Below are positions 24,966 through 63,612 of a stretch of DNA of 64,000 nt, in pieces. The notes below the pieces were generated by a model, which had not been told where the DNA came from, made no database searches, and saw only the letters and a program-made list of their open reading frames with translations. Every line of letters begins with the position of its first letter. The stretch's first letter is position 1. The translations under genes and the position numbers were made by a program. Source of the DNA: a bacterium. GTDB taxonomy: Bacteria; Patescibacteriota; UBA1384; CAILIB01. The stretch is from contig JBAXRQ010000002.1 of NCBI GenBank assembly GCA_037131105.1, positions 94,100-158,099 on the forward strand, given 5' to 3'.

Positions 24966-24973
24966 GCATTCCC

Positions 24974-26764: not shown

Positions 26765-26915
26765 AGTTCATAGCCTAACTATTACAGTAAGTGAAATCAT
26801 CACTCTACCAGCTGCAAACAGTTCACGGTTCGTCGTCGTATATCCAATACACCTCCTCACCCCTTACTGTTTTCGCTGTGTATAGTGACTATTTCATTCT
26901 TGTAACAGCTAGGCG

Positions 26916-28108: not shown

Positions 28109-28195
28109 AAATCTCTCCTTCCTAGCCCATAGCCGCGACTAGCTAAATCTGCTACTCTGATAGGTGCATACAAACACTATTTTGATCGTCCTTCC

Positions 28196-29248: not shown

Positions 29249-29260
29249 ACCACCCCCTCT

Positions 29261-30043: not shown

Positions 30044-30501
30044 TGGGACGCCTCCTCCTAGCCCTACTCGGCTTTCTCGCCGTCATCTTCTCCTTGACCC
30101 TACTGGCCAGCACCTCCTTTCAAGTAGTCGCAACTCTTTATGCCCTCGCTTTACTCACCCTCTTCTTCAGAAACAATCCCGCCGAAGGCTACTGGCTCCT
30201 TGGGGGCATCACCGTGGGACTTGAGCTACTTGGCACCAGCCACCCCGGAGAAGCTTCCTTGGTGAGCCTTATCGTAGTCGGCAGCCATCTCCTTTTTGGA
30301 GAACAGCTGCGTTTTACAGCACCCCTAGTCCGTTTTGTGGCCGCCCTGCTGGTGGTCTTTATCTCATACGATCTTATTATCCTTTCCTGGCGGCACGCCA
30401 TCGGTTATCTCTTCCCCCTCTTCATTACCTATCTGCTTATCTGTCTCGGCACCTGGCTGCTTACCACCTTCCGCCATACCCCCCACCATGAGTTCATTTG
30501 A
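30040..30501 (+). CDS. mreD: Polytopic membrane protein, probable MreD.
   Basis: 153 aa, about five hydrophobic helices. Position between mreC and PBP2, with overlapping stop/start. Confidence 0.55.
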   Translation: MMGRLLLALLGFLAVIFSLTLLASTSFQVVATLYALALLTLFFRNNPAEGYWLLGGITVGLELLGTSHPGEASLVSLIVVGSHLLFGEQLRFTAPLVRFVAALLVVFISYDLIILSWRHAIGYLFPLFITYLLICLGTWLLTTFRHTPHHEFI

Positions 30502-32563: not shown

Positions 32564-32573
32564 TCTTCAAACC

Positions 32574-32861
32574 GTGCCCTGGAAAAAGACCTCTCAGCTG
32601 ATTAGCAAGAACATGTACCGCAACGGGCTTGGTCCTATTCTAATCGCCGGACAGGTATGCCGCGAGGCCGAACGCCTCTACCCCGGCCTCTACAAAGCAG
32701 TTTCCCTGAAAGATGGCTGCCTAAACCTGGAAATCCAACGTACAGACAGACTCAAACTGGTCATGATCCAAGGCAAGCTTATCGAGGATCTCAAGGCCTA
32801 TTCCACCGCCCAAAATCTCCCTCCCATCGACCGGATACGATTGACATTTTACTCAGAATAA
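32574..32861 (+). CDS. DUF721-family small protein (zinc-ribbon-like, often near replication genes).
   Basis: 95 aa. Pattern LISKNMYRNGLGP…AVSLKDGCLNLEI…LKLVMIQGKLIEDLKAY resembles DUF721. Moderate confidence, by eye only. Confidence 0.45.
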   Translation: MPWKKTSQLISKNMYRNGLGPILIAGQVCREAERLYPGLYKAVSLKDGCLNLEIQRTDRLKLVMIQGKLIEDLKAYSTAQNLPPIDRIRLTFYSE

Positions 32862-32920
32862 GGTATACTCGTGATGTACAAGTTTGCGCTCTCCTCGTTT
32901 CACCCTCCTTTCCGCTTCTG

Positions 32921-33493
32921 ATGGACTCCTCCACCCATAAGCTCTCCGACCTGGCAGACCAGGTCCGTACCTGCACTCTCTGTCGCCTTTGTGAAGGCCG
33001 CACCAATGCAGTCCCGGGGGAAGGAAATTTCTCCGCCGACGTGGTATTTATCGGCGAGGGACCAGGAAAAAATGAAGACGAGCAAGGCATCCCCTTCTGC
33101 GGAGCCTCAGGCAAGCTGCTTGACAGTCTTCTTGCCACCATCAATCTCTCCCGTCAGGACGTATTTATTACCAATGTCGTTAAGTGCCGCCCACCGGGCA
33201 ATCGCGACCCCCTTCCTGACGAGAAGCAGACCTGTGCTACCACCTACCTCAACCGACAGCTCGAATTGATCAACCCTAAGCTCATTGTCACCCTCGGTCG
33301 TCACGCCCTTGGCCATTTTATCCCGGACCTCAAGATCTCTCAGGTTCACGGTCAGCCCAAGCGCCATCACGGCCAAGTCTACCTAGCCCTCTACCACCCT
33401 GCAGTCGCCCTTTATAACGGCGGCATGCGTCAAACCCTCGAGGAGGATTTCCTCATTATTCCAAAAGTATTACGCACACTAGCATCCCAATAA
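32921..33493 (+). CDS. Uracil-DNA glycosylase, family 4.
   Basis: Start placed at ATG 32921 (MDSSTHKLS…). Motifs CTLCRLCEGR (Fe-S cysteines), GEGPG, and FITNVVKCRPPGNRDP (family-4 motif B). Confidence 0.8.
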   Translation: MDSSTHKLSDLADQVRTCTLCRLCEGRTNAVPGEGNFSADVVFIGEGPGKNEDEQGIPFCGASGKLLDSLLATINLSRQDVFITNVVKCRPPGNRDPLPDEKQTCATTYLNRQLELINPKLIVTLGRHALGHFIPDLKISQVHGQPKRHHGQVYLALYHPAVALYNGGMRQTLEEDFLIIPKVLRTLASQ

Positions 33494-35829
33494 TGGACAT
33501 CATCACAAACAAAGAAGTGTTCTCCAGCGAGAACCAGGCTAATATGCCTAAGAAGGTCGGACGACGCCCTAGCCGTCCCCGCACTACATCCGGGCCACGT
33601 AACTCACGCCCAGCTGCCGGTGACCAGCACTCAAAGGCACCCGTAGCTACTCAGGCTGCCCCGGCTGCAGTACCTGCTGACGTACAGCCTACCACTGTCG
33701 GCCCCCACACCGACTCTACTACCTACCAGGCAGAGCCTAAGAAGACTGTCTTCTACCAGGCCTCCCGTCCTCGTACGCCTCTGGCCGGTGAGACCCCTGC
33801 CCCCGAAGGCGCTGCTCCTGCAGCCCCTCTTGGCGACCGCCAGCCTCGCAATGACCGACGCCCCCGTCGGCCGCTTCCTGGTGGCTTCTCTTCTGGCGGC
33901 CAGCGTTCCAGTATGCCACGTCCTACCCCTCAGGCACCCGCTCAGTCGAGCGCTCCCGCCGAGAACCCGGCCAGCCTGCCTATCGGCCACCCCAACCATC
34001 CTGACAATCCTCGTAATCCCGGCCGCTTCCAGGCCCCTGCTCGTCGTCCTGACCGCCGTCGCTATCCCGAGGACAGCGGAGGTGTCTTCATGCAGCCAGG
34101 TGGCAACCTGAAGGCCCTCAGCGAGACCCAGCCCGAGTCTTCCGTCCCCAAGAACACCACCGGCGAGAAGCTGAAGATCATTCCTCTGGGTGGTCTTGAG
34201 GAAATCGGCAAGAACATGACAGTTTTCGAATACGGCAATGACATTATCATCGTCGACATGGGCTTCCAGTTCCCTGAGTCCGACATGTTAGGTATCGACT
34301 ATGTCATCCCTGACGTTACCTACCTCGAGGCCAAGAAGGCCAACATCCGCGGTGCCATCATCACCCACGGCCACCTTGACCACACCGGTGCCATTCCTTA
34401 CATCGTCCAGAAGCTCGGCTTCCCTACCCTATACGGAACCGCCATCACCATGGGCATGGCCAAGGGCCGACTGACCGAGTTCGGTCTTGAGGGCAAGAAC
34501 AAGATGGTCGCCATCGAGCCTGAGAAGGACGTCCTGCGCCTCGGTGTCTTCACCATCCGTCCCTTCCGCCTAATGCACAGCATCCCCGGCGCCATCGGTC
34601 TAGAGATCGAGACCCCTAACGGACGTATCTCCTACTGTACCGACTGGAAGTTCGACTACACCCCAGCCTCCGGCGAGCAGATCGACTTCCGTACCCTGGC
34701 CGCCATCGGTACCCGCGGCGTAGACCTGCTGTTCTCTGACTCCACCAATGTCGACCGTCCCGGCCACTCCATCTCTGAGAAGGTGGTTGAGACCTCGTTG
34801 AACACCGCCATTTCTGAGGCGAAGGCCCGCGTGATTATCGCGATGTTCTCCTCTGACCTGAACCGGGTCCAGATGGCGCTCAATGCCGCCGCCAAGTCAG
34901 GCCGCAAGGTACTGGTAGTCGGCCGCAGTATGATGCAGAACGTTGAAATGGCCGTGAACCTGAAGGCTCTGAACGTACCACCAAACACCCTGGTCTCCGA
35001 GCGTGAGATCAACCGATTCGCCGACGAGAAGGTACTGGTACTTTCTACCGGTGCCCAAGGTGAGGACCGGGCTGCCCTGTCCCGCATGGCTTCCGGTGAG
35101 CACCGCGTCATCAAGATCAAGAAGGGCGACACCGTCATTCTTTCCTCTTCCCCTATCCCAGGTAACGAGCGAGCTGTCAGCGGCGTCATGGACAAGCTGT
35201 ACAAGGCTGGTGCCAGCGTGATCTACAACAAGATCATGGACACCCACACCTCAGGCCACGCCTACCAGGAAGACCTGAAGCTGATGCTCGCATTGATGCG
35301 GCCTAAGTACTTCGTACCGCTGCACGGTGAGCGCGCCCGCCTGATATTGCACGGCAAGCTGGCCCAAGAGGTCGGCGTCAGCCCAGAGAACGTCATCATC
35401 GGTGACAACGGTCTGATCCTCGAGATGGACAGTACCGGTAAGGTGTATCCTACCGAGAACCACGCCCCTGCCGGCTACGTCATGGTGGACGGCCTCGGTG
35501 TCGGTGACGTTGGAAACATCGTCCTGCGTGACCGCCAGGCCATGGCCCAGGAAGGCGTATTCTTCATCGTCAGCGTCTATGACGCCAAGCAGAAGCGATT
35601 CCTGAACTCACCCGACCTTATCTCCCGTGGATTTATCTACATGCGTGAGAATGAGGGCTTCGTGAACGAGGTGCGCAATGAGATTAAGGGCTTCCTCGCC
35701 AAGGCAGTAGCCAGCGGCAAGGTTGACCTTCCTGCTATCCGGAACGACCTGCGCGACCGGGTCAGCAAGTACCTCTATGAGAAGACCGAGCGCCAGCCAA
35801 TGGTTATCCCGGTGATTATTGAGGTCTAA
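33493..35829 (+). CDS. rnj: Ribonuclease J (metallo-beta-lactamase/beta-CASP) with a ~220-aa Pro/Arg/Ala-rich disordered N-terminal extension.
   Basis: IIPLGGLEEIGKNMTVFEY…IIVDMG…THGHLDHTGAIP (HxHxDH) and the beta-CASP and C-terminal domains. The N-terminal 220 aa are low complexity (RPSRPRTTSGPRNSRPAAG…). Confidence 0.9.
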   Translation: MDIITNKEVFSSENQANMPKKVGRRPSRPRTTSGPRNSRPAAGDQHSKAPVATQAAPAAVPADVQPTTVGPHTDSTTYQAEPKKTVFYQASRPRTPLAGETPAPEGAAPAAPLGDRQPRNDRRPRRPLPGGFSSGGQRSSMPRPTPQAPAQSSAPAENPASLPIGHPNHPDNPRNPGRFQAPARRPDRRRYPEDSGGVFMQPGGNLKALSETQPESSVPKNTTGEKLKIIPLGGLEEIGKNMTVFEYGNDIIIVDMGFQFPESDMLGIDYVIPDVTYLEAKKANIRGAIITHGHLDHTGAIPYIVQKLGFPTLYGTAITMGMAKGRLTEFGLEGKNKMVAIEPEKDVLRLGVFTIRPFRLMHSIPGAIGLEIETPNGRISYCTDWKFDYTPASGEQIDFRTLAAIGTRGVDLLFSDSTNVDRPGHSISEKVVETSLNTAISEAKARVIIAMFSSDLNRVQMALNAAAKSGRKVLVVGRSMMQNVEMAVNLKALNVPPNTLVSEREINRFADEKVLVLSTGAQGEDRAALSRMASGEHRVIKIKKGDTVILSSSPIPGNERAVSGVMDKLYKAGASVIYNKIMDTHTSGHAYQEDLKLMLALMRPKYFVPLHGERARLILHGKLAQEVGVSPENVIIGDNGLILEMDSTGKVYPTENHAPAGYVMVDGLGVGDVGNIVLRDRQAMAQEGVFFIVSVYDAKQKRFLNSPDLISRGFIYMRENEGFVNEVRNEIKGFLAKAVASGKVDLPAIRNDLRDRVSKYLYEKTERQPMVIPVIIEV

Positions 35830-35847
35830 ATAGCTTGGTGCAGCAGA

Positions 35848-35878
35848 AAAGGGACCCGAATAGGGTCCTTTTTCGTAT
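35848..35878 (+). terminator. Intrinsic terminator after rnj.
   Basis: AAAAGGGACCC-GAATA-GGGTCCTTTTTCG. Confidence 0.6.
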
Positions 35879-36105
35879 CAAGAAATCTTGTTATCCTTTT
35901 CTTATCATGACTAACACTCCCGACAAACAACTCGAGAAGATTACCAGCATGCTTCCTCCTCTTCCCAAGAAGTACCAGGGTAATAACCTTGATACTATCA
36001 TTGTAGAAGCAACTGATGCTTTCTTCTTCGAAAAGTACCTCAGTCAGACTGACTAGGCCACGTACTTAAGAATCGTTCTTTTAAACGCTCTAGCTCTATG
36101 GGCAT

Positions 36106-36134
36106 GTTGGCGCAGGGCTCTTCTTTCGGTATAC
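36106..36134 (+). promoter_or_regulatory. Sigma70-like promoter for the helicase gene.
   Basis: TTGGCG – 17 nt – TATACT, ending ~10 nt before the ATG at 36145 (near-leaderless transcript). Confidence 0.4.
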
Positions 36135-36144
36135 TCAACCCCGC

Positions 36145-37506
36145 ATGACTACACCCGAGATCACCCCCCAGTTCCAAGCCGCCCTCGACCTCATGGAGGA
36201 CAGTAATCAGCACGTCTTCCTCACCGGACGGGCCGGCACTGGCAAATCCACTCTCTTGAATCACTTTAGAACCATCACCAAGAAGAAGGTGGCGGTACTG
36301 GCCCCCACCGGAGTGGCAGCCATTAATGTAGGAGGACAGACCATCCACTCATTCTTCAGATTTCGTCCCGACGTTACTCCTGACACTGCCAGCCGCAGTC
36401 GCCCGGCCGCTGAGAATGCCAAGCTGTATAAGACCCTGGACACCATAGTCATCGACGAGGTCTCCATGCTTCGGGCCGACATGCTGGACTGCATAAACAG
36501 GTTCCTGCGCCTCTACGGGCCCCACAAGGACAGGCCATTCGGCGGCGTCCAGATGATCTTCATCGGTGACCTCTACCAGCTGCCTCCCGTAGTCACCACC
36601 CAGGACCGTGAGATCTTCAACTCTCAGTATAAGAGCCCCTACTTCTTCGACGCCAAGATTATTGATGACATTACCCTTTACCTGGCCGAGCTGGACCACA
36701 TCTTCAGGCAGAAGGATGACTCCTTCATCTCCATCCTGAACGCCATCCGGGAAAACGCCGTCACACCCGAACAACTGGAGGAGCTCAATGAGCGACAAGT
36801 ACTGTATCAGGGGCAAGAGGAAGGACTCATCTCCCTCACCACTACCAACGACCTTGCCCACAAAATCAACGACGAGCACCTGCGGGAGCTGCCAGCCCCA
36901 GAGCACACCTTCGTCGGCACTCCCACCGGCAGCTTCAAGGAGCGTGACTTCCCCACCCCGCAAGAACTCAAGCTCAAGCCCGACGCCCAAGTCATGCTAC
37001 TGGTAAATGACCCCAAAGGACGCTGGGTAAACGGCAGCATAGGGCGGGTAAAACGGGTATATGACGACCCTCAAGGTAGCGACCCCGTGGTGGAGGTCGA
37101 GCTTTCAGACGGCCGGCTTATCAAGGTCCTCCCATTCATGTGGGAGATGTCAAAGTACGTGCTAAGCCCCGAGAGCGGCCAGCTCGAGTCAGAGCTGGTA
37201 GGCAGTTACCGCCACTACCCGTTGCGCCTGGCCTGGGCTGTAACCATACATAAGAGCCAGGGATCAACCTTCGACCGGGTCCATATCGATTTGGGTCGCG
37301 GGACCTTCAGTCACGGCCAATTATACGTGGCGCTGAGCCGTTGCCGAACCCTCGACGGCATCACACTGAAGCAAAGTATCGTCCCTCGATACATAGTGAC
37401 CGACAAGCGCATCAGTGAGTTTCTCAAAAGCTTCAAGGACGGCATGCGGCAAGTCGGCCAAGCCAGCCTAGCCTTTGGGGATGGCTGGTCGGAATGGGGA
37501 GCCTAA
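36145..37506 (+). CDS. Pif1/RecD-family (SF1B) DNA helicase.
   Basis: Walker A (FLTGRAGTGKST); motif II and Pif1-style blocks (VIDEVSMLRADMLDCINRFLR…FGGVQMIFIGDLYQLPPV); C-terminal …AVTIHKSQGSTFDRV. Confidence 0.8.
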   Translation: MTTPEITPQFQAALDLMEDSNQHVFLTGRAGTGKSTLLNHFRTITKKKVAVLAPTGVAAINVGGQTIHSFFRFRPDVTPDTASRSRPAAENAKLYKTLDTIVIDEVSMLRADMLDCINRFLRLYGPHKDRPFGGVQMIFIGDLYQLPPVVTTQDREIFNSQYKSPYFFDAKIIDDITLYLAELDHIFRQKDDSFISILNAIRENAVTPEQLEELNERQVLYQGQEEGLISLTTTNDLAHKINDEHLRELPAPEHTFVGTPTGSFKERDFPTPQELKLKPDAQVMLLVNDPKGRWVNGSIGRVKRVYDDPQGSDPVVEVELSDGRLIKVLPFMWEMSKYVLSPESGQLESELVGSYRHYPLRLAWAVTIHKSQGSTFDRVHIDLGRGTFSHGQLYVALSRCRTLDGITLKQSIVPRYIVTDKRISEFLKSFKDGMRQVGQASLAFGDGWSEWGA

Positions 37507-37571
37507 CACACAGTAGCAGGGCGCCGCTCTCGACGCCCTGCTACATATCTTCAGGCTTTAGTGTGCCTCTA

Positions 37572-41096: not shown

Positions 41097-42572
41097 CTAA
41101 GGCTTGTGGCCGCCTACATAAAACAGTTCCTTTATCCGGCTGAGCTCATCGAGAAGATCTGGTGATTTCTTCATTTCCTTCTCAATCTTGTCTACGGAGT
41201 GCATAGCGGTGGTATGATCGCGTCCCCCAATCTCACGGCCGATGGTGGGAAAGGTCATACCGAGTTCGTTCTTCATCAAATACATGAGGATCTGACGTGG
41301 CTTGACTATCTCCTGTTGGCGACGTGGACCTTGTACATCTTTGAAGTCTACTCCGTAATATTCGCAGACTATCTCTTTAATCTGTTCAAAGGTGGTCTTC
41401 TTTAGTGGTTTATGTAATGAAAATGCCCGCAGCATATCCCGTACTTCTTCAAGGGAAGGCGGCGTGTCGCTAGAGGCTAGGTGTACAAGTACGGTGGTAA
41501 GAGCCCCTTCGAGCTCCCGGATGTTCGTCTCCACCAGGTCGGCTATATAGAAGATAACCTGGTCGGGTAGGCTGATGCCCTTCTCCTCACACTTAGCCTG
41601 GAGAATGGCCTGACGGGTCTCCTGGTCAGGTAGCTGCATGTCAGCGATCATACCAGAGCTGAACCGGCTAGAAAGACGCTCTTCTAGGTCAGCGATCTCG
41701 CTTGGCGCCTTATCTGAGGTGATAATAATTTGCTTATCAGTCTGGTAGAGGGAGTTAAAGGTGTGGAAGAACTCCTCCTGGATACCATCTTTACCGGCGA
41801 TAAACTGGATGTCGTCTATCAGGAAGACGTCGACGTTCCGGTACTTCTTCTTAAAGGCATCCATCTTATTGCCGCGGATACCAGCCACATACTCGTTCAT
41901 GAGGCTTTCACTGGAGACGTAGACCACCCGCTTTTGTGGTTCTCGGGCAATAATCTCATTACCTACTGCCTGCATCAGGTGAGTTTTACCGAGTCCTACT
42001 CCCCCATAAAGGTAGAGGGGGTTATACATTTTACCAGGACGTTCAGCTACGGCTTTGGCGGCGGCGTGGGCTAGTCGATTGCGGTTACCGATGATAAAGG
42101 TGTCAAAGCGGTACTTCGGGTTGAGGTTTGACTCCGGGATGGGGTCTGAGCTGCGCTGCTGAGCGGCTTGGGAGGGTGAGACGGGTTCTGAGTCATCCAC
42201 GCTATTGAAGAGGCTCTGCCCGCCGGCTGGCGCGTTCTTACGGCCTACCTTGGGCTTTGCGACGATGATATATTCTATAGTTGTGACTTCATATCCGGCC
42301 TGCTGGGAAATGGAGGCTAGAATCTTACCTTCAGCGTATTTATGGATGAATCCTTTAGAGTGGATGTTTTCCACAGTAACCTGGGCGGAACCTGGTGTGA
42401 GGGCGGTTAGTTGGGCTCCATGGAACCAAGTCTTGAAGACAGCCGGCGAAATCTCCCCTTCTATCTCAGAGAGGGCCTGTTTCCAGATTAGATTGAGCTG
42501 TTCTTCGGTCATGGCGGCGGAAAGGAAGGTGTAAAAATAAGGGCTGCTGCCCCTTAGTGAATAGGATACCAA
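41097..42572 (-). CDS. dnaA: Chromosomal replication initiator DnaA.
   Basis: AAA+ Walker A/B, sensor motifs, and C-terminal DnaA-box-binding HTH. The likely true start is the second Met (MTEEQLNLIWKQ…, ~42512); the ORF-track start at 42572 would abut the DnaA boxes. Confidence 0.95.
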   Translation of the reverse strand: MVSYSLRGSSPYFYTFLSAAMTEEQLNLIWKQALSEIEGEISPAVFKTWFHGAQLTALTPGSAQVTVENIHSKGFIHKYAEGKILASISQQAGYEVTTIEYIIVAKPKVGRKNAPAGGQSLFNSVDDSEPVSPSQAAQQRSSDPIPESNLNPKYRFDTFIIGNRNRLAHAAAKAVAERPGKMYNPLYLYGGVGLGKTHLMQAVGNEIIAREPQKRVVYVSSESLMNEYVAGIRGNKMDAFKKKYRNVDVFLIDDIQFIAGKDGIQEEFFHTFNSLYQTDKQIIITSDKAPSEIADLEERLSSRFSSGMIADMQLPDQETRQAILQAKCEEKGISLPDQVIFYIADLVETNIRELEGALTTVLVHLASSDTPPSLEEVRDMLRAFSLHKPLKKTTFEQIKEIVCEYYGVDFKDVQGPRRQQEIVKPRQILMYLMKNELGMTFPTIGREIGGRDHTTAMHSVDKIEKEMKKSPDLLDELSRIKELFYVGGHKP

Positions 42573-42575
42573 GAG

Positions 42576-42604
42576 TTATCCACAGGTGTAAAGAGTTATC
42601 CACA
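42576..42604. promoter_or_regulatory. Two consensus DnaA boxes immediately upstream of dnaA.
   Basis: TTATCCACA at 42576-42584 and 42596-42604 (GAGTTATCCACAGGTGTAAAGAGTTATCCACAATA). Confidence 0.75.
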
Positions 42605-42606
42605 AT

Positions 42607-43160
42607 AAACCTAGATGTTCTCTTATTTCGAACTGATCGACTCAAGGGAACCCATCTTATATATCCTTCCAGGATATGTCTCAAGGTCCGAAATAAGAGA
42701 ACATCTAGGTTTACAGTAAACTCCCAGGGCGGACTGATCGACTCAAGGAAACTATATACTTGTACTCCTTCGGAGTACGTCTCAAGGTTCAAATTACCAA
42801 TGCGCATGCAGATACAGGTTAATACCCTGAAAAGTCGTTCGACTCAAGGGAGCCTGTCAGAAAGTACTCCTCCAGAGTACGTCTCAAAGACTTTTCAGGT
42901 ACTTGCATGAAGATTCAGGCTAATACTGAAAACGACTGACTGACTCACTCCTATAAGAAAAGACCGGCAGCCCGACAAGAGGCCTTGAGACGTATCCCGG
43001 AGGGATACTGCTATATGGCCTCACTAAGTCGAACGACTCTTGTTGGGCTGCTGGTCTTTATTACTTCGGAATACGTCTCAAGGTCCATTTCAGGCAAGCA
43101 GCGGCAGATTCAGGTGATGTAGTAATCAAAGCTGTTCGACTCAAGGGCCCCGATGTTATT
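42607..43160. repeat. Cluster of about five to six degenerate copies of a ~100-bp palindromic repeat unit (half-sites CGACTCAAGGGA and a covarying hairpin followed by CGTCTCAAGG).
   Basis: Seen in sequence: unit 1 (42611-42708) is bounded by perfect 20-bp terminal inverted repeats CTAGATGTTCTCTTATTTCG / CGAAATAAGAGAACATCTAG. Recurrent CTGATCGACTCAAGG (42628, 42733), GTTCGACTCAAGGG (42835, 43132) and (G)AGTACGTCTCAAGG (42672, 42770, 42878, 43070; inverted copy at 42985). Internal hairpins covary between copies: ATATCCT/AGGATAT, GTACTCC/GGAGTAC, AGTACTC/GAGTACT, GTATCCC/GGGATAC. Confidence 0.65.
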
Positions 43161-43179
43161 TTTCTGATACTATTTTCTT

Positions 43180-43707
43180 ATGAAACTCATAATTATATAC
43201 GGTCCTCCAGCCGCTGGTAAGCTCACTGTCGCCCAGGAGCTTGCCCGAATAACGGGATACCGTCTTTTCCATAATCACCTTACCATTGAGCTGGCCAAGG
43301 AGATATTTCCTGAGCGGAATCAGCAAAGTGCTGATTTAATTTCCCAACTAAGGCTTGATGTTTTTGATGCTGCGGCTAAAGCTGGCACTGACCTTATCTT
43401 TACCATGGTATACGCGGCTGGACTGGATGACGAGTACTTCTCTAGGGTCGTTGAAATTATAGAGTCTTCCGGTGGTGAAGTGTGCTTCGTTCAACTTCTA
43501 CCAAGTGAAAAAGTCTTGGAAAGTCGAATATCTGCCCAGTCTCGAGCCGCCTACTCAAAAATCAGAGACGTTGAGGTCTTAAGGAACCTGACCGCAACCC
43601 GCGACCTTCTTACGCCAGTGAGCCATGATTTAAATCTCTCCATTGATAATAGTGAAAGATCACCTCAGGACGTCGCCGAACAGATAAGCCGACATTTCTC
43701 TCTCTAG
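43180..43707 (+). CDS. Small P-loop NTPase / nucleotide-kinase-fold protein (AAA_33/shikimate-kinase-like).
   Basis: Walker A at the N-terminus (IIIYGPPAAGKLT). 175 aa. Substrate not determinable. Confidence 0.6.
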   Translation: MKLIIIYGPPAAGKLTVAQELARITGYRLFHNHLTIELAKEIFPERNQQSADLISQLRLDVFDAAAKAGTDLIFTMVYAAGLDDEYFSRVVEIIESSGGEVCFVQLLPSEKVLESRISAQSRAAYSKIRDVEVLRNLTATRDLLTPVSHDLNLSIDNSERSPQDVAEQISRHFSL

Positions 43708-43709
43708 TT

Positions 43710-44144
43710 CTAACCTGAGACGATCCAGGAAAAGGTCTTAGGGTGGACGATAGCCACACCTTCCCATTCCTTAAGGTCGAGCAGGTCCTTGTCTAGGGTG
43801 ATTATTAGATTCGCCTTGCCAGCTTGGGCGCAAGCTAAGATGTGGTTGTCGTCAGGATCTCGAAGGATGACTTTAGGAACCAGGGGTGCCTCAATGATCG
43901 CTGTTCCCTTTCTAATGAAGTCTAGGTATTTACCAACCTGCTCAGCTGTAAATTCAAACTTAGTACCCATCTTTCTTTTTAGTTCGCCCAGGATATATTC
44001 CGAGCAAAGGACGGTGAATTCACCGTATAATCCTCGTTTAACCAGTTCCTCGGACATCCCGGGACGCAAAAAGGCCGCAATATAGATATTGGTGTCAAAT
44101 ACTACTCGAAGCTGGTGGGAGCTAGCCGAAGATCCGCTCGACAT
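43710..44144 (-). CDS. PIN-domain toxin (PIN_3 / TIGR00305-like VapC family).
   Basis: VVFDTNIYIAA N-terminal acidic motif and DPDDNHILACAQAGKANLIITLDKDL C-terminal PIN_3 block. 4-codon overlap with the upstream RHH gene. Confidence 0.75.
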   Translation of the reverse strand: MSSGSSASSHQLRVVFDTNIYIAAFLRPGMSEELVKRGLYGEFTVLCSEYILGELKRKMGTKFEFTAEQVGKYLDFIRKGTAIIEAPLVPKVILRDPDDNHILACAQAGKANLIITLDKDLLDLKEWEGVAIVHPKTFSWIVSG

Positions 44145-44343
44145 CGTCGTCGGATTCTATACCTAGCTGCTTGGCGATGCGGTCACCTGCTTTCCGTATC
44201 TCTTGCCACTGTGACTCAAAGGAGTATAGATGTAAGGCATCCTTAAAAATCTGACTGCGAGAACGGTTTGAGTCAGTCGCCAGCTTATTAACCTGGGCAA
44301 CCTCGCTATCAGAGAGTGAAATCGAGACAATATTGGCAGGCAT
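44122..44343 (-). CDS. Ribbon-helix-helix (CopG-like) antitoxin partnered with the PIN toxin.
   Basis: Start placed at MPANIVSISLSDSEVAQVNKLATDSNRSRSQIFKDAL: N-terminal beta-strand plus two helices typical of RHH. Immediately upstream of, and overlapping, the PIN gene. Confidence 0.65.
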   Translation of the reverse strand: MPANIVSISLSDSEVAQVNKLATDSNRSRSQIFKDALHLYSFESQWQEIRKAGDRIAKQLGIESDDDVERIFG

Positions 44344-44480
44344 AAAAAGCAATGAAGTGATATATCTGTATATTAATAATATTTATTAATACTGTCAATA
44401 TTCCGTCCCTGTCCCACACCTTGTCCTAAGTAAAAAAATAAGATATAGTAAGGCCTGACTAATTACTCGAGTACTCACAG

Positions 44481-46077: not shown

Positions 46078-46167
46078 GGAGAGATGGCTGAGTGGTCGAA
46101 GGCGGCGGTCTCGAAAACCGTTATGCGGGCAACTGCATCTAGGGTTCGAATCCCTATCTCTCCGCCA
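46078..46167 (+). tRNA. tRNA-Ser (anticodon CGA), type II with long variable arm, CCA encoded.
   Basis: GGAGAGA (acceptor) … anticodon loop CU-CGA-AA … long variable arm TATGCGGGCAACTGCATC … T-arm TAGGG-TTCGAAT-CCCTA … TCTCTCC-G-CCA. Acceptor and T stems pair perfectly. Confidence 0.85.
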
Positions 46168-46170
46168 AAG

Positions 46171-46200
46171 TAAAAAGAGTATCTAAGGATACTCTTTTTA
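46171..46200. terminator. Bidirectional intrinsic terminator after tRNA-Ser.
   Basis: AAAAAGAGTATC-TAAG-GATACTCTTTTTAC. Confidence 0.6.
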
Positions 46201-46209
46201 CTTTGTGCT

Positions 46210-46365
46210 TCGCGATAGGGATTCGAGTCCCGCTTTGACCTGCTGGAGCAGGTCGGAATGTTCGCGGAAGCGAGTGACCGAATCCCTATCTTCCATGGAG
46301 TGGTGATTGCTTACTCGGTCAAGGAGTGGAGAAGGCCCGGCCGCCATCCCTATCTCTTCCTTATG
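46210..46365. repeat. Three partial copies of the tRNA-Ser 3' end (one inverted, two direct), att-site-like remnants.
   Basis: GCGATAGGGATTCGAGTCCCGC (inverted copy of GGGTTCGAATCCCTATC), CCGAATCCCTATCTTCC and CATCCCTATCTCTTCC (direct copies of CGAATCCCTATCTCTCC). Confidence 0.55.
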
Positions 46366-46431: not shown

Positions 46432-46800
46432 ATGGAAAGGCCATCCTTTCTGGGAAGCGCTCTGGAGCACGAAGCGTCAGTGGAATCCACTCAGGTTAGG
46501 AGCTTCATAGCGGATCTACTCCCTCAGGCCCTGGTGAGAATTGAGGGTACTATACTCCTGGCTGAGGTGGATAGAGGTGGAGCCAAGCGGGTTGGCGAAG
46601 AAATCTGGGGGGCTTATATTGAGATGATGGCCCAAGATGCCTTATTTTCTAGTGTTCATTATGAGCCTGGCTTTATATCAGCGGACCTGGTGAAGCCTGA
46701 GTCGGGTATCACCTCGTTACGGGTACGTAAGGTGGCCTCTACTCCTCAGGCTACATTACCGACAGCATATACCGGTCAACCGGTGCGTATTCATCAGTGA
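46432..46800 (+). CDS. Hypothetical protein.
   Basis: 122-aa ORF. No family recognised. Its 3' end overlaps the convergent spermidine-synthase-like gene by ~50 nt, so it may be spurious. Confidence 0.3.
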   Translation: MERPSFLGSALEHEASVESTQVRSFIADLLPQALVRIEGTILLAEVDRGGAKRVGEEIWGAYIEMMAQDALFSSVHYEPGFISADLVKPESGITSLRVRKVASTPQATLPTAYTGQPVRIHQ

Positions 46801-48241
46801 GTACTGGCTGGCTGGTCTCTACCTGTTTAGTCCAGAGATGATTAAAATACCCCTGGATCTCTTTGTCGGGACTTACGAATGAAGGCTTTGTGGGGCTTTT
46901 GAGTGCTACTATCATCACATTTTGGACATCGGTACCGTTTTCAGGTTTGTTGACCGCAAAAGCGTAGACCTGGGGAAATACCGACTTATAGGTGGCGTAC
47001 TCGGCTTGGAAGAACTGACTTTTGGGGCCGTTGATAGCGGAGATAACATTGAGGATCACCACTCCCTTTGGCGTGAGCCTGTCGTACATGCGCTGGACCG
47101 CTTCCTGGGTGGTCAGCTGGTAGGGTACCGACATTGATCTAAAGGCGTCACCGTAGATGACGTCATAGGTCTGGGTGGTCTCATTGAGATAGGTGCGGGC
47201 GTCAGCGTGGAAGATGTTCAGCCGGTCAGAATCCTTCAGGTTGAAATACTGCTTGGCTAGCTCGGTCACCTTGGGATCGATCTCCACCACGTCCATCTTA
47301 GCCTCTGGATAATGGGTTAGGAAATCCTTGGGATAGGAATAGGCCGCCCCACCCAGCATCAGTCCTCTACCCTGGGCAATGGCAGGGTTCAGAGTGCTGT
47401 CCAGCCTGTAATAGTTTGTGTAGGGAAAGGTAAGCTTGTCACCGTTAAGGTACATGGCAGAGCTAAACTCATTGCCGATCTGCATGAAGCGAGCTTCTTC
47501 AGTCTGCCCTGGAAAATAGCCAGAATAGATCCAGATACGAGAATATTGCGAGTCAGTATCGATAAAACCCTGCTGGGCCAGGACGAGGTCATGAACACGG
47601 AAGATGACCAGGCCGGCTACTAGTATGAGCGCCAGTCCAGTCTGCAGAGGCAGGCTGCGCCGGGTGAATCCGACGGCGAGGAGAGAAGCTGCCAGTAAGA
47701 TAGCGGCTACCAGAAGTAAGACGGTGGTGGTGCGTAGATACTCGATCAGGAAAAAGCCGGCTAGAAAGGTGCCGGTGATGCTCCCTAGGGTAGAAATAGC
47801 GTAGAGATTGCCCACGGTGCTACCTGTGTATTTAAGGGTCTCCATCTTCAGTTTCACCGCGTACGGCGATACCATGCCCAGCAGTACGGTAGCAGGGGCG
47901 AAGAGCACCAGACAGACTACCACCGAGCGGATATAGAGGGATTGGGTCGCGGCTGTGGCAAGGGTAAAGAGACTTCCCTGGATATAAGGTATGCAGGCCA
48001 CGAGTATGCCTGATACCAGTAAAAGGCTGGCTAAGACCTGGTAAGAAGGCCTGCGGTCGGCTAGGCGGCCACCCAGCCAGTATCCTAGGCTTAGGCTTCC
48101 CAGTATTATTCCGATCAGGCTGGACCAGACTACTATAGTGGTGCCCAGGTATGGAGAAAGCACCCGGGAGCCGTCTAATTCAAGGATCATGCCGGCAGCG
48201 CCGACCAAAAAGACGAGAATCTCTAGGAAGTATTTTTTCAT
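46751..48241 (-). CDS. Fused polytopic membrane domain plus spermidine-synthase-like (PABS) aminopropyltransferase domain.
   Basis: N-terminal ~220 aa with about seven hydrophobic helices. C-terminal GGAAYSYPKDFLTHYPEAKMDVVEIDPKVTELAKQYF…IYGDAF… matches the PABS/SpeE fold (GGGDG-like, D(V)VEID). Confidence 0.75.
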   Translation of the reverse strand: MKKYFLEILVFLVGAAGMILELDGSRVLSPYLGTTIVVWSSLIGIILGSLSLGYWLGGRLADRRPSYQVLASLLLVSGILVACIPYIQGSLFTLATAATQSLYIRSVVVCLVLFAPATVLLGMVSPYAVKLKMETLKYTGSTVGNLYAISTLGSITGTFLAGFFLIEYLRTTTVLLLVAAILLAASLLAVGFTRRSLPLQTGLALILVAGLVIFRVHDLVLAQQGFIDTDSQYSRIWIYSGYFPGQTEEARFMQIGNEFSSAMYLNGDKLTFPYTNYYRLDSTLNPAIAQGRGLMLGGAAYSYPKDFLTHYPEAKMDVVEIDPKVTELAKQYFNLKDSDRLNIFHADARTYLNETTQTYDVIYGDAFRSMSVPYQLTTQEAVQRMYDRLTPKGVVILNVISAINGPKSQFFQAEYATYKSVFPQVYAFAVNKPENGTDVQNVMIVALKSPTKPSFVSPDKEIQGYFNHLWTKQVETSQPVLTDEYAPVDRYMLSVM

Positions 48242-48413
48242 GGTTTCATTATACCTTCTTGGAGCTATCTATTGCACCATTGCATTTTTTGGGAAACAGG
48301 TGTACAGTTAAGCAGTCTTTTAGAGACGTGTCTCCGTCTTGCTGGGTCGAGGGTAGGTAGGAAGACAGAATCGTAGAAACAAGTGTAATTCGTTTGAACT
48401 AAATTTTTCCCAT

Positions 48414-48692
48414 ATGTCCAAGAAGCTATACGTTGGTGGTCTTCCTTATTCCACCACCACTGAGGAACTAGAGGCTGCATTCGCCCCTTTCGGTACCGTT
48501 GAAGAGGCTATCATCATCTCCGACCGTGAGACCGGCCGCAGCAAGGGTTTTGGTTTCGTTACCATCACCGAAGACAAGGGTGCTGACGACGCTATCGAAG
48601 CTATGAACGGCAAGGACTTCAATGGTCGTCCTCTTACCGTCAATGAGGCTCGTCCTAAGGAGGCTGCTCCTGCTTACCGCTCTGAGCGCTAA
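48414..48692 (+). CDS. RRM-type RNA-binding protein.
   Basis: RNP-2 (LYVGGL) and RNP-1 (KGFGFVTI) motifs. 92 aa. Confidence 0.85.
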   Translation: MSKKLYVGGLPYSTTTEELEAAFAPFGTVEEAIIISDRETGRSKGFGFVTITEDKGADDAIEAMNGKDFNGRPLTVNEARPKEAAPAYRSER

Positions 48693-48711
48693 TCAGTTTT
48701 CAGCTTTAGGA

Positions 48712-48745
48712 TAAGAAAGGGACCCCCTAGGGGGTCCCTTTCTTT
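48712..48745. terminator. Intrinsic terminator after the RRM gene.
   Basis: AAAGGGACCCCC-TA-GGGGGTCCCTTTCTTT. Confidence 0.7.
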
Positions 48746-48778
48746 GCCATATCCTCCCCTTCTCCCACAAAAATGAAT

Positions 48779-48990
48779 GATCTTCGCTGGTGTGGGCCCA
48801 CACGGCGGAGAACGCTCAGATCCTAAGACCGCCTTCCGAGGCAGCGTCGCTTCCGGGCTAACAGTTAAGGAATCGTCCTCCCTGCCACATCTACAATGTG
48901 GAAGATCTTCGCTGGTATGAGATTCATACGGCGGAGGCCGCTCAGATCCTAGGACCGCCTTCCGGCGGTCCGTCGCTCCCGAAGCGGCGT
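48779..48990. repeat. Two tandem ~100-nt structured repeats (candidate small RNAs) between the convergent RRM and pilB genes.
   Basis: Unit A GATCTTCGCTGG-GTGTGGGCCCACAC-GGCGGAGAACGCTCAGATCCTAAGACCGCCTTCCG… and unit B GATCTTCGCTGG-GTATGAGATTCATAC-GGCGGAGGCCGCTCAGATCCTAGGACCGCCTTCCGGCGGTCC…. Flanks are conserved while the hairpin stem covaries (GTGTGGG/CCCACAC versus GTATGAG/TTCATAC). Each unit also carries a tiny ATG…RRRxLRS* ORF (17-18 aa) whose hairpin-encoded residues are not conserved. Confidence 0.55.
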
Positions 48991-50510
48991 TAGGCCGAGG
49001 TAACTCGATAGATCTCTGACTCGGTGGTCATCCCCCGCTTTACCTTGTCCAGGCCGTCATTAAGCATGGAGACCATACCGCCACGCTCGGCGATCTGTTC
49101 CAGGCCTCCCTGGTCACGGTGCTGCATGACCGCTTGCTCGAACTCAGTGTTGGGGCAGAGTACTTCGCCGATGACTATGCGGCCGGAGTACTCTGGTTTC
49201 TCAGCGGTGGTTCCCGGTACCAGTTTGCGCACCAAGCGTTGGGCGACGACCATCTGGATACTGCCGGCCAGCAGGAACGGCTCGATTCCCATCTCCAGGA
49301 AACGGGTATGGGCAGTGACTGCGTTGTTGGTGTGCAGGGTGGAAAGCACCAGGTGGCCGGTAAGGCTGGCATTCAGGGCGATGGTGGCGGTCTCAGGGTC
49401 CCGAATTTCACCGATCATGACAATGTCAGGGTCCTGACGCATGGCCCCACGCAATCCTTCCGCAAAGGTGAAGCCGTGCTCGCTGTCGATCTGGCTCTGT
49501 TGCAATCCAGGTAGGCGGTACTCGATAGGATCCTCCAGGGTAATAATCTTCTTCTCGGGCGAGTTCAGTACTTTGAGCAGTGCGTACAAGGTAGTGGACT
49601 TTCCTGATCCGGTAGGTCCCGTCACAATGATTAGCCCGTAAGGCTTCTTGATGATCCTATTGATGAGTCCCTGGTTATATTCTGAGAATCCCAGCTCCTG
49701 GATGGTAAGGGTCTGCATGTCCTGGCGCAGTATTCTCATGACGATCCCCTCTCCGTAGCCAGTCGGGATGGTGGCGACGCGCAGGTCGGCGTTGATGCCT
49801 TTGTCTTGGAGGCCGAAGCGACCGTCCTGGGTGTTGCTCTTGTCGTCCAACTTCATCTTTGACTGGACCTTGATGCGGGAGACTAGGCCGTGATGCTGGG
49901 CCATGGGAAGCTCCAGAACCTTCTGTAGTACGCCATCTATGCGGAAGCGGATCTCCAGGACCTTCTCGCTAGGCTCGAGGTGGATATCCGAGGCCTGGGC
50001 ATTGAAGGCAGCGGCTAGAATAACATCTAGTAGTTCTGTCGTACTGGCCTTACCCGCCTGTTCGCGCAGGTCGTCCAGGGTACGGATGTTGTGGAAGTAG
50101 TCTTTTTTCTGCTCCTCGGTGCGGTTCCGGGAGAACTGAGCCTCTTCTTCCACCCGCTCATTACGGAGTTTCTGATAGGCGTCTATGAGCACATTCATAC
50201 TGGTTGCCGAGACTACGGTGAGCTCCAGGTCCTTATGCCAGTCATTCGCAAGGGCTATCAACTCCTTGTGGATCTCCTCATCGTCAGGGCGTTCTACCGC
50301 CATATGTACCTTGGTAGATGACCGCACGTAGGCGGCGTAGCGGCGCTTGGTAACCGTTTCTATAGGGACAAGCTCCAATACGTCCAGGTTAAAGGGGAAG
50401 TCGTCCAGCTGGGTAGTGGTCATTCCCATGTTGGCGGCCATGGCGGCGGCCTGGTGCTCTTCCTTCTCGCGCTGGAACTGCCTGAGTGAGACGTCTAATG
50501 AGGCGGGCAT
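48990..50510 (-). CDS. PilB/GspE-family secretion ATPase (type IV pilus / T2SS-like assembly ATPase; VirB11 superfamily).
   Basis: Walker A (IIVTGPTGSGKSTTLYALL), Asp box, Walker B and His box. ~506 aa with an N-terminal GspE_N-like domain. Confidence 0.85.
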   Translation of the reverse strand: MPASLDVSLRQFQREKEEHQAAAMAANMGMTTTQLDDFPFNLDVLELVPIETVTKRRYAAYVRSSTKVHMAVERPDDEEIHKELIALANDWHKDLELTVVSATSMNVLIDAYQKLRNERVEEEAQFSRNRTEEQKKDYFHNIRTLDDLREQAGKASTTELLDVILAAAFNAQASDIHLEPSEKVLEIRFRIDGVLQKVLELPMAQHHGLVSRIKVQSKMKLDDKSNTQDGRFGLQDKGINADLRVATIPTGYGEGIVMRILRQDMQTLTIQELGFSEYNQGLINRIIKKPYGLIIVTGPTGSGKSTTLYALLKVLNSPEKKIITLEDPIEYRLPGLQQSQIDSEHGFTFAEGLRGAMRQDPDIVMIGEIRDPETATIALNASLTGHLVLSTLHTNNAVTAHTRFLEMGIEPFLLAGSIQMVVAQRLVRKLVPGTTAEKPEYSGRIVIGEVLCPNTEFEQAVMQHRDQGGLEQIAERGGMVSMLNDGLDKVKRGMTTESEIYRVTSA

Positions 50511-50526
50511 AGAGGTGATTTAGTAG

Positions 50527-58547: not shown

Positions 58548-58575
58548 GGTCCCCTCCCTTAGCTTGTTTGGTGTG

Positions 58576-59883: not shown

Positions 59884-59886
59884 GGG

Positions 59887-60393: not shown

Positions 60394-60418
60394 CTACGCC
60401 CCGACTGCTGAACAGGCT

Positions 60419-63603: not shown

Positions 63604-63612
63604 GCTTCGTGC

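Follow-up and report, generated by a model that had tools for sequence, protein, structure and literature searches.

A dispersed hairpin repeat with a conserved tip and copy-specific stems forms a tandem array upstream of dnaA in a Patescibacteria-like genome

Repeat array upstream of dnaA

In the 64,000-nucleotide stretch of DNA analysed here (the window), the spacer upstream of dnaA holds five units in strict tandem repeat with a period of 101 bp. Next to the array, at the GC-skew minimum, are two perfect DnaA boxes (42576, 42596); the array's own 5′ boxes start at 42639, 42740, 42841, 42942 (degenerate) and 43138. All sequence features named in a preliminary description of this region are present and exceed chance as judged by shuffles and a covariance model. 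They are listed below, each on the strand with the better fold; bit scores are those of the covariance model.

42606-42713, minus strand: array unit A (U1), a complete element (77.8 bits; folding z = -8.5), with copy-specific stem arms at 42606-42633 and 42686-42713 (28 nt, 27/28 or 96% complementary), 5′ box GACTCAAGG at 42639-42647, hairpin P2 at 42661-42677 and 3′ box GTCTCAAGG at 42678-42686
42734-42790, minus strand: array unit B (U2), the core alone without a closing stem (65.1 bits; flanks non-complementary), with boxes at 42740-42748 and 42779-42787 and P2 at 42762-42778
42826-42899, minus strand: array unit C (U3; 83.9 bits), with a short stem at 42826-42839 and 42886-42899 (arms 14 nt, 93% complementary), boxes at 42841-42849 and 42881-42889 and P2 at 42864-42880
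42936-43131, minus strand: array unit D, split by an insertion of ~95 nt and placed by the 101-bp box register and the five-unit alignment, with its own degenerate 5′ box GACTCACTCC at 42942-42951, a hairpin remnant at 43058-43074 and a 3′ box at 43075-43083 (27 bits for 43017-43095)
42959-43059, plus strand: U4, a complete inverted element nested in unit D (78.2 bits), with a copy-specific stem at 42959-42986 and 43032-43059 (arms 28 nt, 86% complementary), box CCTTGAGAC at 42983-42991, P2 at 42992-43008 and a degenerate second box at 43022-43030
43132-43160, minus strand: array unit E, truncated to its 5′ box (43138-43146) and stopping just short of an AAA_33 gene

The region had been described as an array of degenerate units. 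Five units are indeed present, but the inverted one at 42959-43059 is a nested insertion rather than part of the array: alignment of the five units contains a single 95-column insertion, in unit D, and the inserted U4 folds on its own (-60.8 kcal/mol, z = -9.3). The perfect 20-bp terminal inverted repeats credited to U1 are real and even longer than was claimed; they are, however, stems peculiar to that copy and not family-wide terminal repeats.

Copies elsewhere in the genome

Twelve full copies were collected, five in the window, two on the same contig beside dnaE and five on other contigs. The two beside dnaE flank it on both sides, just left of the window, and the five short contigs that carry the remaining copies come from the same lake metagenomes. 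The distant copy reported at 8.46 kb is genuine. The interval given for it, 8459-8567, contains most of one complete copy and, at its right end, an oppositely oriented partial copy:

8443-8535, plus strand: U6, a complete dispersed copy between convergent genes (90.5 bits, E = 7e-24), with stem arms at 8443-8463 and 8515-8535, box TTGAGAC at 8465-8471, P2 at 8472-8488 and box CCTTGAGTC at 8502-8510
8538-8567, minus strand: partial copy abutting U6, composed of a degenerate hairpin and CGTCTCAAAAGTTT

Positions 8459-8474 of U6 and 8552-8567 of the adjoining partial copy form a perfect 16-nt inverted match. The geometry of this partial copy is the same as that of the unit D remnant beside U4.

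The element is dispersed, as had been proposed: at least nine loci were found in the same population genome, all of them intergenic, and most lie far from oriC with no relation to replication genes. Several copies occupy gene 3′ ends (after uvrB, tRNA-Arg, a sortase gene and dnaE), and others are situated upstream of genes or within an operon (L019 and L107b; L018 between ftsE and ftsX). Their hairpins are stable, with folding z-scores of -6 to -12. Short-read contigs break within copies (L108 at both ends, L019 at its end, L004 at its start), and the element explains why short-read assemblies of the source population are interrupted at these points. Replication-strand bias, assessed at four contig loci, was inconsistent across copies, and these are too few independent loci.

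Conserved core and covarying hairpin

The window contains 5 occurrences of the box GACTCAAGG, where 0.79 are expected (none of 100 shuffles reached 5), and 6 of GTCTCAARG, where the expectation is 1.43. With one exception, these matches fall within the two regions singled out in the preliminary description. Each copy has a conserved core of ~52 nt, in which two boxes in direct repeat, G(A/T)CTCAAGG, accompany a variable linker and P2, a hairpin of 7 bp capped by a loop of 3 nt. On the opposite strand the boxes read CTTGAG(A/T)C, and their first three bases (GAC/GTC) pair mutually. Sequence conservation drops to background ~8 nt beyond the core.

In the 12-copy alignment P2 is 98.8% paired, and four of its seven pairs carry compensatory changes on both sides. 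Over the structure as a whole, pairing is 88%, and sliding the partners by 1-3 columns reduces it to 32-46%; covariation is seen at all 13 stem pairs scored, and none of 500 shuffles attained the observed covariation score. The four hairpin stem variants quoted earlier (ATATCCT/AGGATAT, GTACTCC/GGAGTAC, AGTACTC/GAGTACT and GTATCCC/GGGATAC) were correctly read, and the covariation then claimed for the internal hairpin is upheld. Selection therefore appears, from this covariation, to act on the fold and not on primary sequence. A possible third helix, GGCUC/GAGUC, is 88% paired, mostly through invariant bases and wobble pairs; having a single compensatory change, it was set aside as evidence.

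Copy-specific stems

The core is closed by a stem of 18-28 bp in the dispersed copies and of 11-14 bp in one array unit. Stem sequence is distinct in each copy, even where cores are 98% identical. U6 and L020 illustrate this best: they differ at one of 61 core bases and have identical linkers, their stems are unrelated, and the sequence that they share extends for 61 nt and none beyond. When compared with ~110 kb of the same genome, stem arms matched only themselves. The inner 7-8 bp of the arms are semi-conserved, and outer arm identity is at chance level. By local alignment and register-anchored identity, likeness between the arms of different copies was not significantly above that of shuffled arms; the best pairs (L020/L021, 0.55; L017/L107a, 0.50) stand against a null 99th percentile of 0.545, values compatible with common descent of the stems and equally with unrelated origins. 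Three long arms used as spacer-like queries gave no matches in viral contigs. The puzzle posed by these stems is that a 61-nt core can be 98% identical across loci whose stems are unrelated.

Strand asymmetry

In the GACTCAAGG orientation, stem mismatches comprise 12 A.C and only 1 G.U, so the A.C mismatches become wobble pairs on the opposite strand. The wobble-bearing strand is the more stable one in 11 of 12 copies (Wilcoxon p = 0.006). This asymmetry tracks the orientation of the element and not the chromosome strand, since U4 and U6 are inverted relative to U1-U3. Because wobble pairs gather on one strand and that strand folds better in nearly every copy, the element appears to act single-stranded and folded. 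The strand-specific wobble pattern is a handle on the active strand that needs nothing but sequence.

Read on the favoured strand, 11 of 12 copies have GAA or GGA as the hairpin loop, and in nine a C-G pair closes it. The d(C-GNA-G) mini-hairpin has exceptional stability in DNA (PMC13037366, PMC3201870); the triloop is accordingly a lead towards single-stranded DNA that rests on analogy and is not a test. We infer that DNA rather than RNA is the acting form, with the reservation that RNA and DNA folding are indistinguishable by sequence. Gene orientation supports the DNA reading but can also be turned against it. At all seven unambiguous loci the favoured strand runs antisense to the adjacent gene, so that read-through mRNA would carry the worse-folding strand; the same bias could mean that transcription rather than single-stranded DNA is what matters.

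No promoter-like or terminator-like signals were found flanking the copies. Sigma-70-like hexamers within the core (TTGAGA-N17/18-TAnAnn) were present in some copies only, inconsistently, and were not called by a promoter scan. The possibility that the copies are intrinsic terminators was rejected, because a T-run follows the stem in only two of 12 copies (L020 and U4) and the wobble pairs lie on the antisense strand.

Distribution and database searches

An exact-pattern scan of 185,579 GTDB species genomes gave no matches. In IMG/VR, a two-box pattern returned 10 matches, all attributable to chance and lacking the hairpin, and a hairpin-plus-box pattern returned none; blastn with the elements against plasmid and phage collections was also negative. 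Matches in JGI metagenomes came solely from the source population, in one set of related samples. In five relatives, the ~85 kb around dnaA searched with the covariance model contained no copy, and their rpmH-dnaA spacers measure 190-350 bp. The array, the AAA_33 gene and a PIN/RHH pair form a block that is missing from all five of these spacers.

At gathering thresholds, Rfam 15 recognised only a tRNA in the window. Even at E ≤ 10, the array drew only generic miRNA-hairpin matches (18-35 bits against thresholds of 57-100) and none to the other families covered, among them hammerhead, twister, twister-sister, pistol, hatchet, HDV-like, Y RNA and 6S. The hammerhead core (CUGANGA...GAAA) was absent by eye.

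The cognate transposase envisaged in the preliminary description did not turn up: a Pfam search of sizeable ORFs in the window and its flanks found no transposase, integrase, HUH or RAYT gene in 82 kb of contiguous sequence, all of these ORFs encoding housekeeping, T4SS-like or unknown proteins. No target-site duplications were seen at any border, including those of the nested insertion, nor any conserved flanking tetranucleotide or motif outside the stems. The literature offered nothing relevant on conserved-loop/variable-stem repeats or loop-targeting MITEs. By sequence comparison, the element matches no described family and is lineage-specific.

Interpretation

We consider the copies to be, with a probability of about 0.45, a lineage-specific REP/REPIN/MITE-like hairpin repeat that is recognised as folded single-stranded DNA, the oriC array being a by-product of local duplication. 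They would belong to the broad class of non-coding interspersed hairpin repeats, here of ~95-110 nt, in which each copy would present the conserved module at the tip of a long stem of its own. The active strand would read 5′-arm-YTTGAGAC-hairpin-linker-CCCTTGAGTCGAWC-arm′. A protein acting in trans to process single-stranded DNA, namely a transposase or nuclease whose gene lies elsewhere in the genome, would recognise the module, and the stem would need only to pair. Both this partner and the mode of mobility are things that we infer. Copies would spread by insertion of the whole hairpin and by local tandem duplication, and the array would be a duplication product in an insertion-tolerant, recently remodelled spacer and not a working part of the origin. 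As a side effect, such stable hairpins would probably behave in transcripts as REP elements do, as barriers, stabilisers or terminators.

Mobility rests on one nested insertion, in which a complete hairpin of ~95 nt breaks into one unit of an array that otherwise keeps an exact 101-bp period; the intergenic position of every copy and the contig breaks within copies fit with it. The population assemblies compared were all identical, and no empty site or presence/absence polymorphism was seen among them, which counts against mobility. Copy-and-paste of whole hairpins also predicts sister copies that share a stem. None was found among the known copies, a second point against the preferred reading, which leaves the origin of the copy-specific stems unexplained.

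The main rival, which we regard as rather unlikely, holds that the copies are small structured RNAs of one family, whether a host non-coding RNA or a new self-cleaving or protein-recruiting RNA. Function would then reside in the junction of the two CUUGAG boxes and P2, and variation in the closing helix would be tolerated, as it is among paralogous ribozymes or tRNAs. Functional RNAs typically combine a conserved junction with covarying helices; in addition, only one strand carries G.U-type mismatches, the cores are conserved far beyond the stems, and tandem arrays recall some ribozyme-bearing repeats. Such an RNA is, however, hard to square with the lack of Rfam matches other than sub-threshold generic miRNA-hairpin models and with a better-folding strand that is antisense at 7/7 loci, at copies devoid of promoter- or terminator-like signals. 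A host RNA would not usually be absent from relatives and from all reference genomes, small ribozymes need far less than closing stems of 18-28 bp, and GNA triloops are better known in DNA. The identical linkers and unrelated stems of U6 and L020 also point to recent copying and not to old paralogy.

A bolder proposal, unlikely in our estimation, is that a conserved three-way-junction module on an ever-new stem represents an undescribed, structure-defined element. It would be either a mobile hairpin borne on single-stranded DNA, with its stem rebuilt or exchanged at each event, or a new and possibly catalytic class of structured RNA in the candidate phyla radiation. A mechanism that rebuilds or exchanges the stem would match none of the REP, MITE, IS200/IS605 and attC paradigms.

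The stems would find a simple source if only a core of ~64 nt, bounded by a semi-conserved inner inverted repeat of 7-8 bp (AAAACT...AGTTTT), were mobile and inserted at the apex of pre-existing hairpins. The targets would be the intrinsic terminators of 14-20 bp common in the clade, and the copy-specific stems would be the target hairpins. Plain perfect hairpins with stems of 14-18 bp, about the size of the outer stems, are indeed common in this genome and its relatives, and several copies sit exactly at gene 3′ ends. The T-tract after the L020 stem, the 61 nt and no more shared by U6 and L020, the decay of conservation ~8 nt outside the core and the position of U4 at the centre of a local AT-rich quasi-palindrome (TAAGAAA/TTTATTA) all fit as well. 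We nevertheless find core-only insertion quite unlikely. U4 adds ~95 nt, and sister array units have no hairpin at that site, so the stem arrived with the insertion. The wobble pairs lie antisense to the upstream gene, whereas terminators on the sense strand would show the reverse, T-runs stand behind only 2/12 stems, and some copies are upstream of genes or in an operon.

It could also be argued that the copies are decaying local duplications without selected function, their palindromy kept by mutation alone through hairpin-templated quasipalindrome correction. Template switching within hairpins, an established mutational mechanism, needs no selection to create perfect palindromes or lengthen existing ones. 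Several stems contain no mismatch over 24-26 bp, and some overlap native gene ends (the uvrB stop codon, the tRNA ACCA, the dnaE stop codon) as if copied from one arm to the other. We strongly doubt this account, because the copies are dispersed and not merely local, mutation alone gives no reason for a 12:1 wobble bias towards one strand in both chromosomal orientations, the core boxes stay the same while linkers and stems change from copy to copy, and double substitutions arose independently in P2 four times or more.

Protein-binding sites specific to the origin (iterons or accessory oriC elements, taken as direct repeats in double-stranded DNA with spacings of ~40 bp and 101 bp), a link drawn in the preliminary description, would suit the adjoining DnaA boxes and the regular spacing but are barely credible, because most loci are distant from oriC, relatives with the same dnaA-rpmH synteny entirely lack the array, double-stranded sites need no copy-specific complementary stems, covarying hairpin or strand-specific wobble, the array is accompanied by an inserted P-loop gene and a toxin-antitoxin pair, and local tandem duplication of 101 bp explains the array itself.

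For annotation, the conspicuous repeats beside dnaA would not be origin elements. Their host belongs to a Patescibacteria-like lineage that has been sampled little and has a compact genome, a setting in which selfish repeats are considered rare.

Comparison with known systems

REP and REPIN elements are mobilised by RAYT (HUH Y1) transposases (Bertels & Rainey 2011, PMC3116915; Messing et al. 2012, PMC3479197). Like them, the element is a short non-coding sequence present in multiple intergenic copies, folds into a ~100-nt hairpin that shows compensatory changes, would act as folded single-stranded DNA, occurs in clusters and in both orientations, and is often found at gene 3′ ends. In contrast to REPINs, which have conserved REP arms and a variable spacer or loop, it has a conserved apical module and copy-specific arms. 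It also lacks a GTAG-type (GT[AG]G) head, and the 82 kb examined contain no RAYT gene.

The assignment to a MITE/REP-like class made in the preliminary description is the best available, although a conventional MITE can be set aside, because the stems are specific to each copy and do not represent family-wide transposon ends. Similar to the MITEs Correia, ERIC, RUP and BOX, the element is ~100 nt long, non-coding and dispersed, forms a long hairpin and can affect neighbouring transcripts, and its one nested insertion indicates movement. MITEs, however, have conserved terminal inverted repeats and target-site duplications, and here the outer arms are unique, duplications are absent and no parent IS is known.

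The single-stranded DNA transposons IS200/IS605 and their PATE derivatives (PMC6006769) share with the element a strand-specific cis-acting hairpin without terminal inverted repeats or target duplications, a short conserved motif (CTTG/TCAA-like) beside that hairpin and a possible coupling to a strand-specific process. They differ in having a conserved target tetra- or pentanucleotide at their borders, a TnpA, which was not found here, and separate left-end and right-end hairpins, where the element has one recognition hairpin and a long, unique stem clamp.

Integron attC sites are likewise imperfect palindromes (60-140 nt) in which structure is conserved over sequence and one folded strand, antisense to the adjacent gene, acts. 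Their layout is the opposite, with conserved outer R″/R′ boxes (RYYYAAC/GTTRRRY) and a variable centre, and the element is without cassettes or cassette ORFs, an IntI gene and R/L boxes.

T-shaped origin hairpins of HUH-Rep systems, such as parvovirus ITRs and the nick sites of CRESS viruses and rolling-circle plasmids (for example CTTG|ATA), presumably resemble it in carrying a conserved apical module on a stem of free sequence, with CTTGA boxes beside a small hairpin and a single-stranded DNA logic. Unlike these origins, the element has no Rep gene or replicon context, and its copies are chromosomal and dispersed. If the preferred reading is true, it would be a structurally inverted variant among the few bacterial hairpin repeats, with a conserved tip on a free stem where REPINs have conserved arms and a free loop.

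Organization of the array beside dnaA

The element is a hairpin repeat of about 95-110 nt, in which a ~52-nt core of two direct boxes and a small 7-bp hairpin is usually closed by a stem peculiar to each copy. Read in the orientation of the preliminary description (here called forward), a unit runs arm - (G/T)(A/T)TC - GACTCAAGG(G/A)A - ~12-nt linker - 7-bp stem/3-nt loop/7-bp stem - GTCTCAA(G/A)G - arm'. The boxes are direct repeats with one base different (GAC vs GTC), so their first three bases are complementary; this 3-bp helix is invariant in 12/12 full copies aligned from the window, its flank and metagenome contigs. Sequence information reaches background ~8 nt beyond the core, where dispersed copies carry their own inverted arms, the total stem being typically 18-28 bp. 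Hairpin stability is -45 to -65 kcal/mol (z = -6 to -12).

All sequence features listed in the preliminary description are present, and its four hairpin variants are correct. In the window, GACTCAAGG occurs 5 times (0.79 expected) and GTCTCAARG 6 times (1.43 expected). The array is more regular than had been described, with 5′ boxes starting at 42639, 42740, 42841, 42942 (degenerate, GACTCACTCC) and 43138, a period of 101 bp plus one extra 95 nt. Alignment of the five units requires one 95-column insertion only, in the fourth (unit D): a complete inverted element closed by a 23-28 bp stem of its own (U4, 42959-43059), whose insertion point is the middle of a short AT-rich quasi-palindrome immediately 5′ of the host unit's hairpin. 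Unit B has no closing stem and unit C has 11-14 bp. The "terminal inverted repeats" reported for unit 1 are indeed complementary arms (28 nt each, 27/28), but the name is a misnomer since arms are copy-specific. The 49-nt array spacer has its own conserved piece, GCATG(C/A)AGAT(A/T)CAGG(T/C)TAATAC, with a small hairpin (42807-42830, 42906-42928, 43098-43120); the piece was not found at dispersed copies. Two ORFs crossing the array, 42466-42807 (-) and 42557-42910 (+), of 113 and 117 aa, are almost certainly spurious, although one public assembly annotates one of them as a gene.

Origin setting and relatives

The window lies on a 283-kb metagenomic contig (ENA ERZ27300165 k141_631109), and several ENA, Logan and JGI samples contain assemblies of the same population, with the repeat region identical in all. 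Its DnaA has a best identity of 43-45% among 185,579 GTDB species genomes (Chloroflexota, several Patescibacteria) and 63% to an NCBI protein labelled 'Patescibacteria group bacterium', which points to an uncultured, poorly represented, probably Patescibacteria-like lineage. The sign of the GC skew switches at about 40-44 kb, where dnaN-dnaA diverges from rpmH-rnpA-yidD-yidC and two perfect DnaA boxes occur (42576 and 42596); the earlier term "origin-proximal" is therefore right as a location. From the origin, which GC skew places near 42 kb, dnaA-dnaN-recF and rpmH-yidC alone diverge; the long gene blocks on its two sides, 23697-37506 (+) and 46751-63987 (-), face it and so run head-on to replication.

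In five relatives, whose DnaA is 64-75% identical, the synteny rpmH-dnaA-dnaN-recF-RNase J-UDG-PBP2-MreC-MreB is retained. Their rpmH-dnaA spacers measure only 190-350 bp, against ~1.9 kb here (42513-44480), and an unfiltered covariance-model search of ~85 kb of these genomes found only plain hairpins and no copy. The suggested role as iteron-like sites near the origin is not supported: the array is not an origin component, and is a local tandem duplication inside a spacer that took other insertions too.

Other contents of the rpmH-dnaA spacer
43180-43707: AAA_33 P-loop gene
43710-44352: PIN_3/RHH toxin-antitoxin pair
44362-44391: most AT-rich 30-mer of the origin region, upstream of rpmH

Because this 30-mer is far from the two DnaA boxes, the ancestral oriC may have been split. 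Elsewhere in the window (50527-57474 (-) and 57471-63987), a 2315-aa ORF without Pfam match adjoins ORF 48990-50510 and a T4SS-like cluster (C39-like peptidase, TrbC-type pilin, amidase, VirB4-like, TraC-like, PrgI). Relatives have similar giant ORFs (2423 and 2975 aa) in the same position, and their counterparts of 48990-50510 have a T2SSE ATPase domain.

Since the element was also not found in GTDB genomes, IMG/VR, plasmids or phages, the family is lineage-specific; it is known from a single uncultured population.

Distribution of copies

That the element is dispersed has been borne out. Within the window, a covariance model built from ten copies found none beyond those already known (65-90 bits) and the unit-D remnant (27 bits); just left of the window it found two more, flanking dnaE on either side. 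The 82 kb of contiguous sequence thus contain four loci. Scanning JGI metagenomes for an exact pattern gave six contigs, which come from a single group of related samples and represent the oriC locus and five new loci. The extra copy formerly placed at 8459-8567 is real, but is actually a complete copy and an opposed partial one, a geometry like that of unit D beside the nested U4. All known copies are intergenic, and short-read contigs often end within them, as a repeat predicts.

Copies of the element outside the array
8443-8535: complete copy (U6), 8.4-kb locus, between convergent genes
8538-8567: partial copy, orientation opposite to U6, abutting it
After uvrB: stem overlaps the last uvrB codons
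Between ftsE and ftsX
Upstream of an ABC ATPase gene
Immediately 3′ of tRNA-Arg
3′ of a sortase gene
On both sides of dnaE: two copies left of the window, same contig

The copy upstream of dnaE (17272-17365 of the left flank, L107) takes the annotated GTG start and first dnaE codons into its stem. That start is probably too far upstream, because the PHP domain begins 30 codons after it and there is an in-frame ATG 21 codons further on.

Folding and the favoured strand

The proposed selection on secondary structure is supported by the 12-copy alignment. Pairing in the small hairpin reaches 98.8%, and 4/7 of its pairs have changed on both sides; 13/13 scored stem pairs covary; across the whole structure pairing is 88%, compared with 32-46% when partners are slid; and 0/500 shuffles reached the observed covariation. 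With each stem paired in its own register, transition-type mismatches on the forward strand were A.C 12 times and G.U once, and therefore G.U/G.T wobble pairs fall on the reverse strand (5′-arm-YTTGAGAC-hairpin-linker-CCCTTGAGTCGAWC-arm'), which is the more stable in 11/12 copies (p = 0.006). This bias tracks the element and not the chromosome, U4 and U6 being inverted relative to array units U1-U3, and it appears to oppose the direction expected from the genome's skew-type mutation pressure. For these reasons, we read it as a constraint on reverse-strand folding.

Three points lean towards DNA rather than RNA as the folded strand. Reverse-strand loops are GAA or GGA in 11/12 copies, with a C-G closing pair in 9, the type of the d(C-GNA-G) mini-hairpin, which is exceptionally stable in DNA (PMC13037366, PMC3201870). 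The forward strand is sense at 7/7 loci with unambiguous neighbour-gene direction (two-sided p about 0.016), therefore read-through transcripts would carry the worse-folding strand. The flanks of the copies show no promoter-like or terminator-like signals, and with a different stem around each copy there is no space for an external promoter common to all. Rfam contains no family that matches the element. A new structured-RNA family is a live rival reading, though a less probable one.

Mobility and the copy-specific stems

A complete ~95-nt hairpin, stem included, inserted into an existing array unit, as the nesting of U4 demonstrates. U6 and L020, a sequence from outside the window, have 60/61 bases in common, variable linker included, and nothing beyond. 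Arm similarity over all copy pairs is at chance level; arms matched nothing else in ~110 kb, nor did three long arms match viral contigs. By these comparisons, stems do not seem to be inherited in any simple way. Whole hairpins may have moved long ago, their stems diverging under pairing constraint while gene conversion kept the cores alike. One arm may also have been rebuilt from the other by hairpin-templated copying, which would explain stems entering native gene ends (the uvrB stop codon, tRNA ACCA and dnaE stop codon). Insertion of a ~64-nt core at the tip of long hairpins already in place, the clade's usual terminators, would fit the copy positions at gene ends but is contradicted by U4 and by the wobble pairs on the antisense strand; it is a live rival of low probability. 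A cognate transposase had been envisaged; no candidate enzyme gene is encoded in the 82 kb.

Very long perfect intergenic hairpins (14-20 bp stems, 0-5 nt loops), apparently bidirectional terminators, are habitual in this genome and its relatives (8646-8678, 37513-37544, 46166-46205, 48713-48744; also hairpins of L103, L104 and L111). The 18-bp one at 46166-46205 follows tRNA-Ser (46078-46164) and precedes tRNA-Ser 3′-arm fragments, inverted at 46214-46226 and direct at 46279-46290 (region 46078-46300), that may be left over from attachment sites of an integrative element.

Comparison with known systems

At a probability of roughly 0.45, we favour an interspersed hairpin repeat that is specific to this lineage and is recognised in folded single-stranded form, probably as ssDNA. 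For every specific family, the element lacks the defining features that were tested. MITEs have family-wide terminal inverted repeats and target duplications, whereas the element has neither; IS200/IS605 derivatives insert beside a short fixed motif, of which there is no sign here; in attC sites the outer boxes are conserved and the centre varies, a layout that the element does not share. REP/REPIN sequences are intergenic ~100-nt hairpins, which a single-copy HUH transposase is believed to process as ssDNA (PMC3116915, PMC3479197, PMC6006769). The element lacks the REPIN GTAG head, and in REPINs the arms are conserved and the spacer is freer, the reverse of the arrangement here. Nevertheless, as an intergenic ~100-nt hairpin with compensatory changes it resembles REP/REPIN most. 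The earlier mobile MITE/REP-like reading survives in kind; we tentatively place the element there as a new variant, whose conserved tip and copy-specific stem, with a one-strand wobble signature, are unusual and testable.
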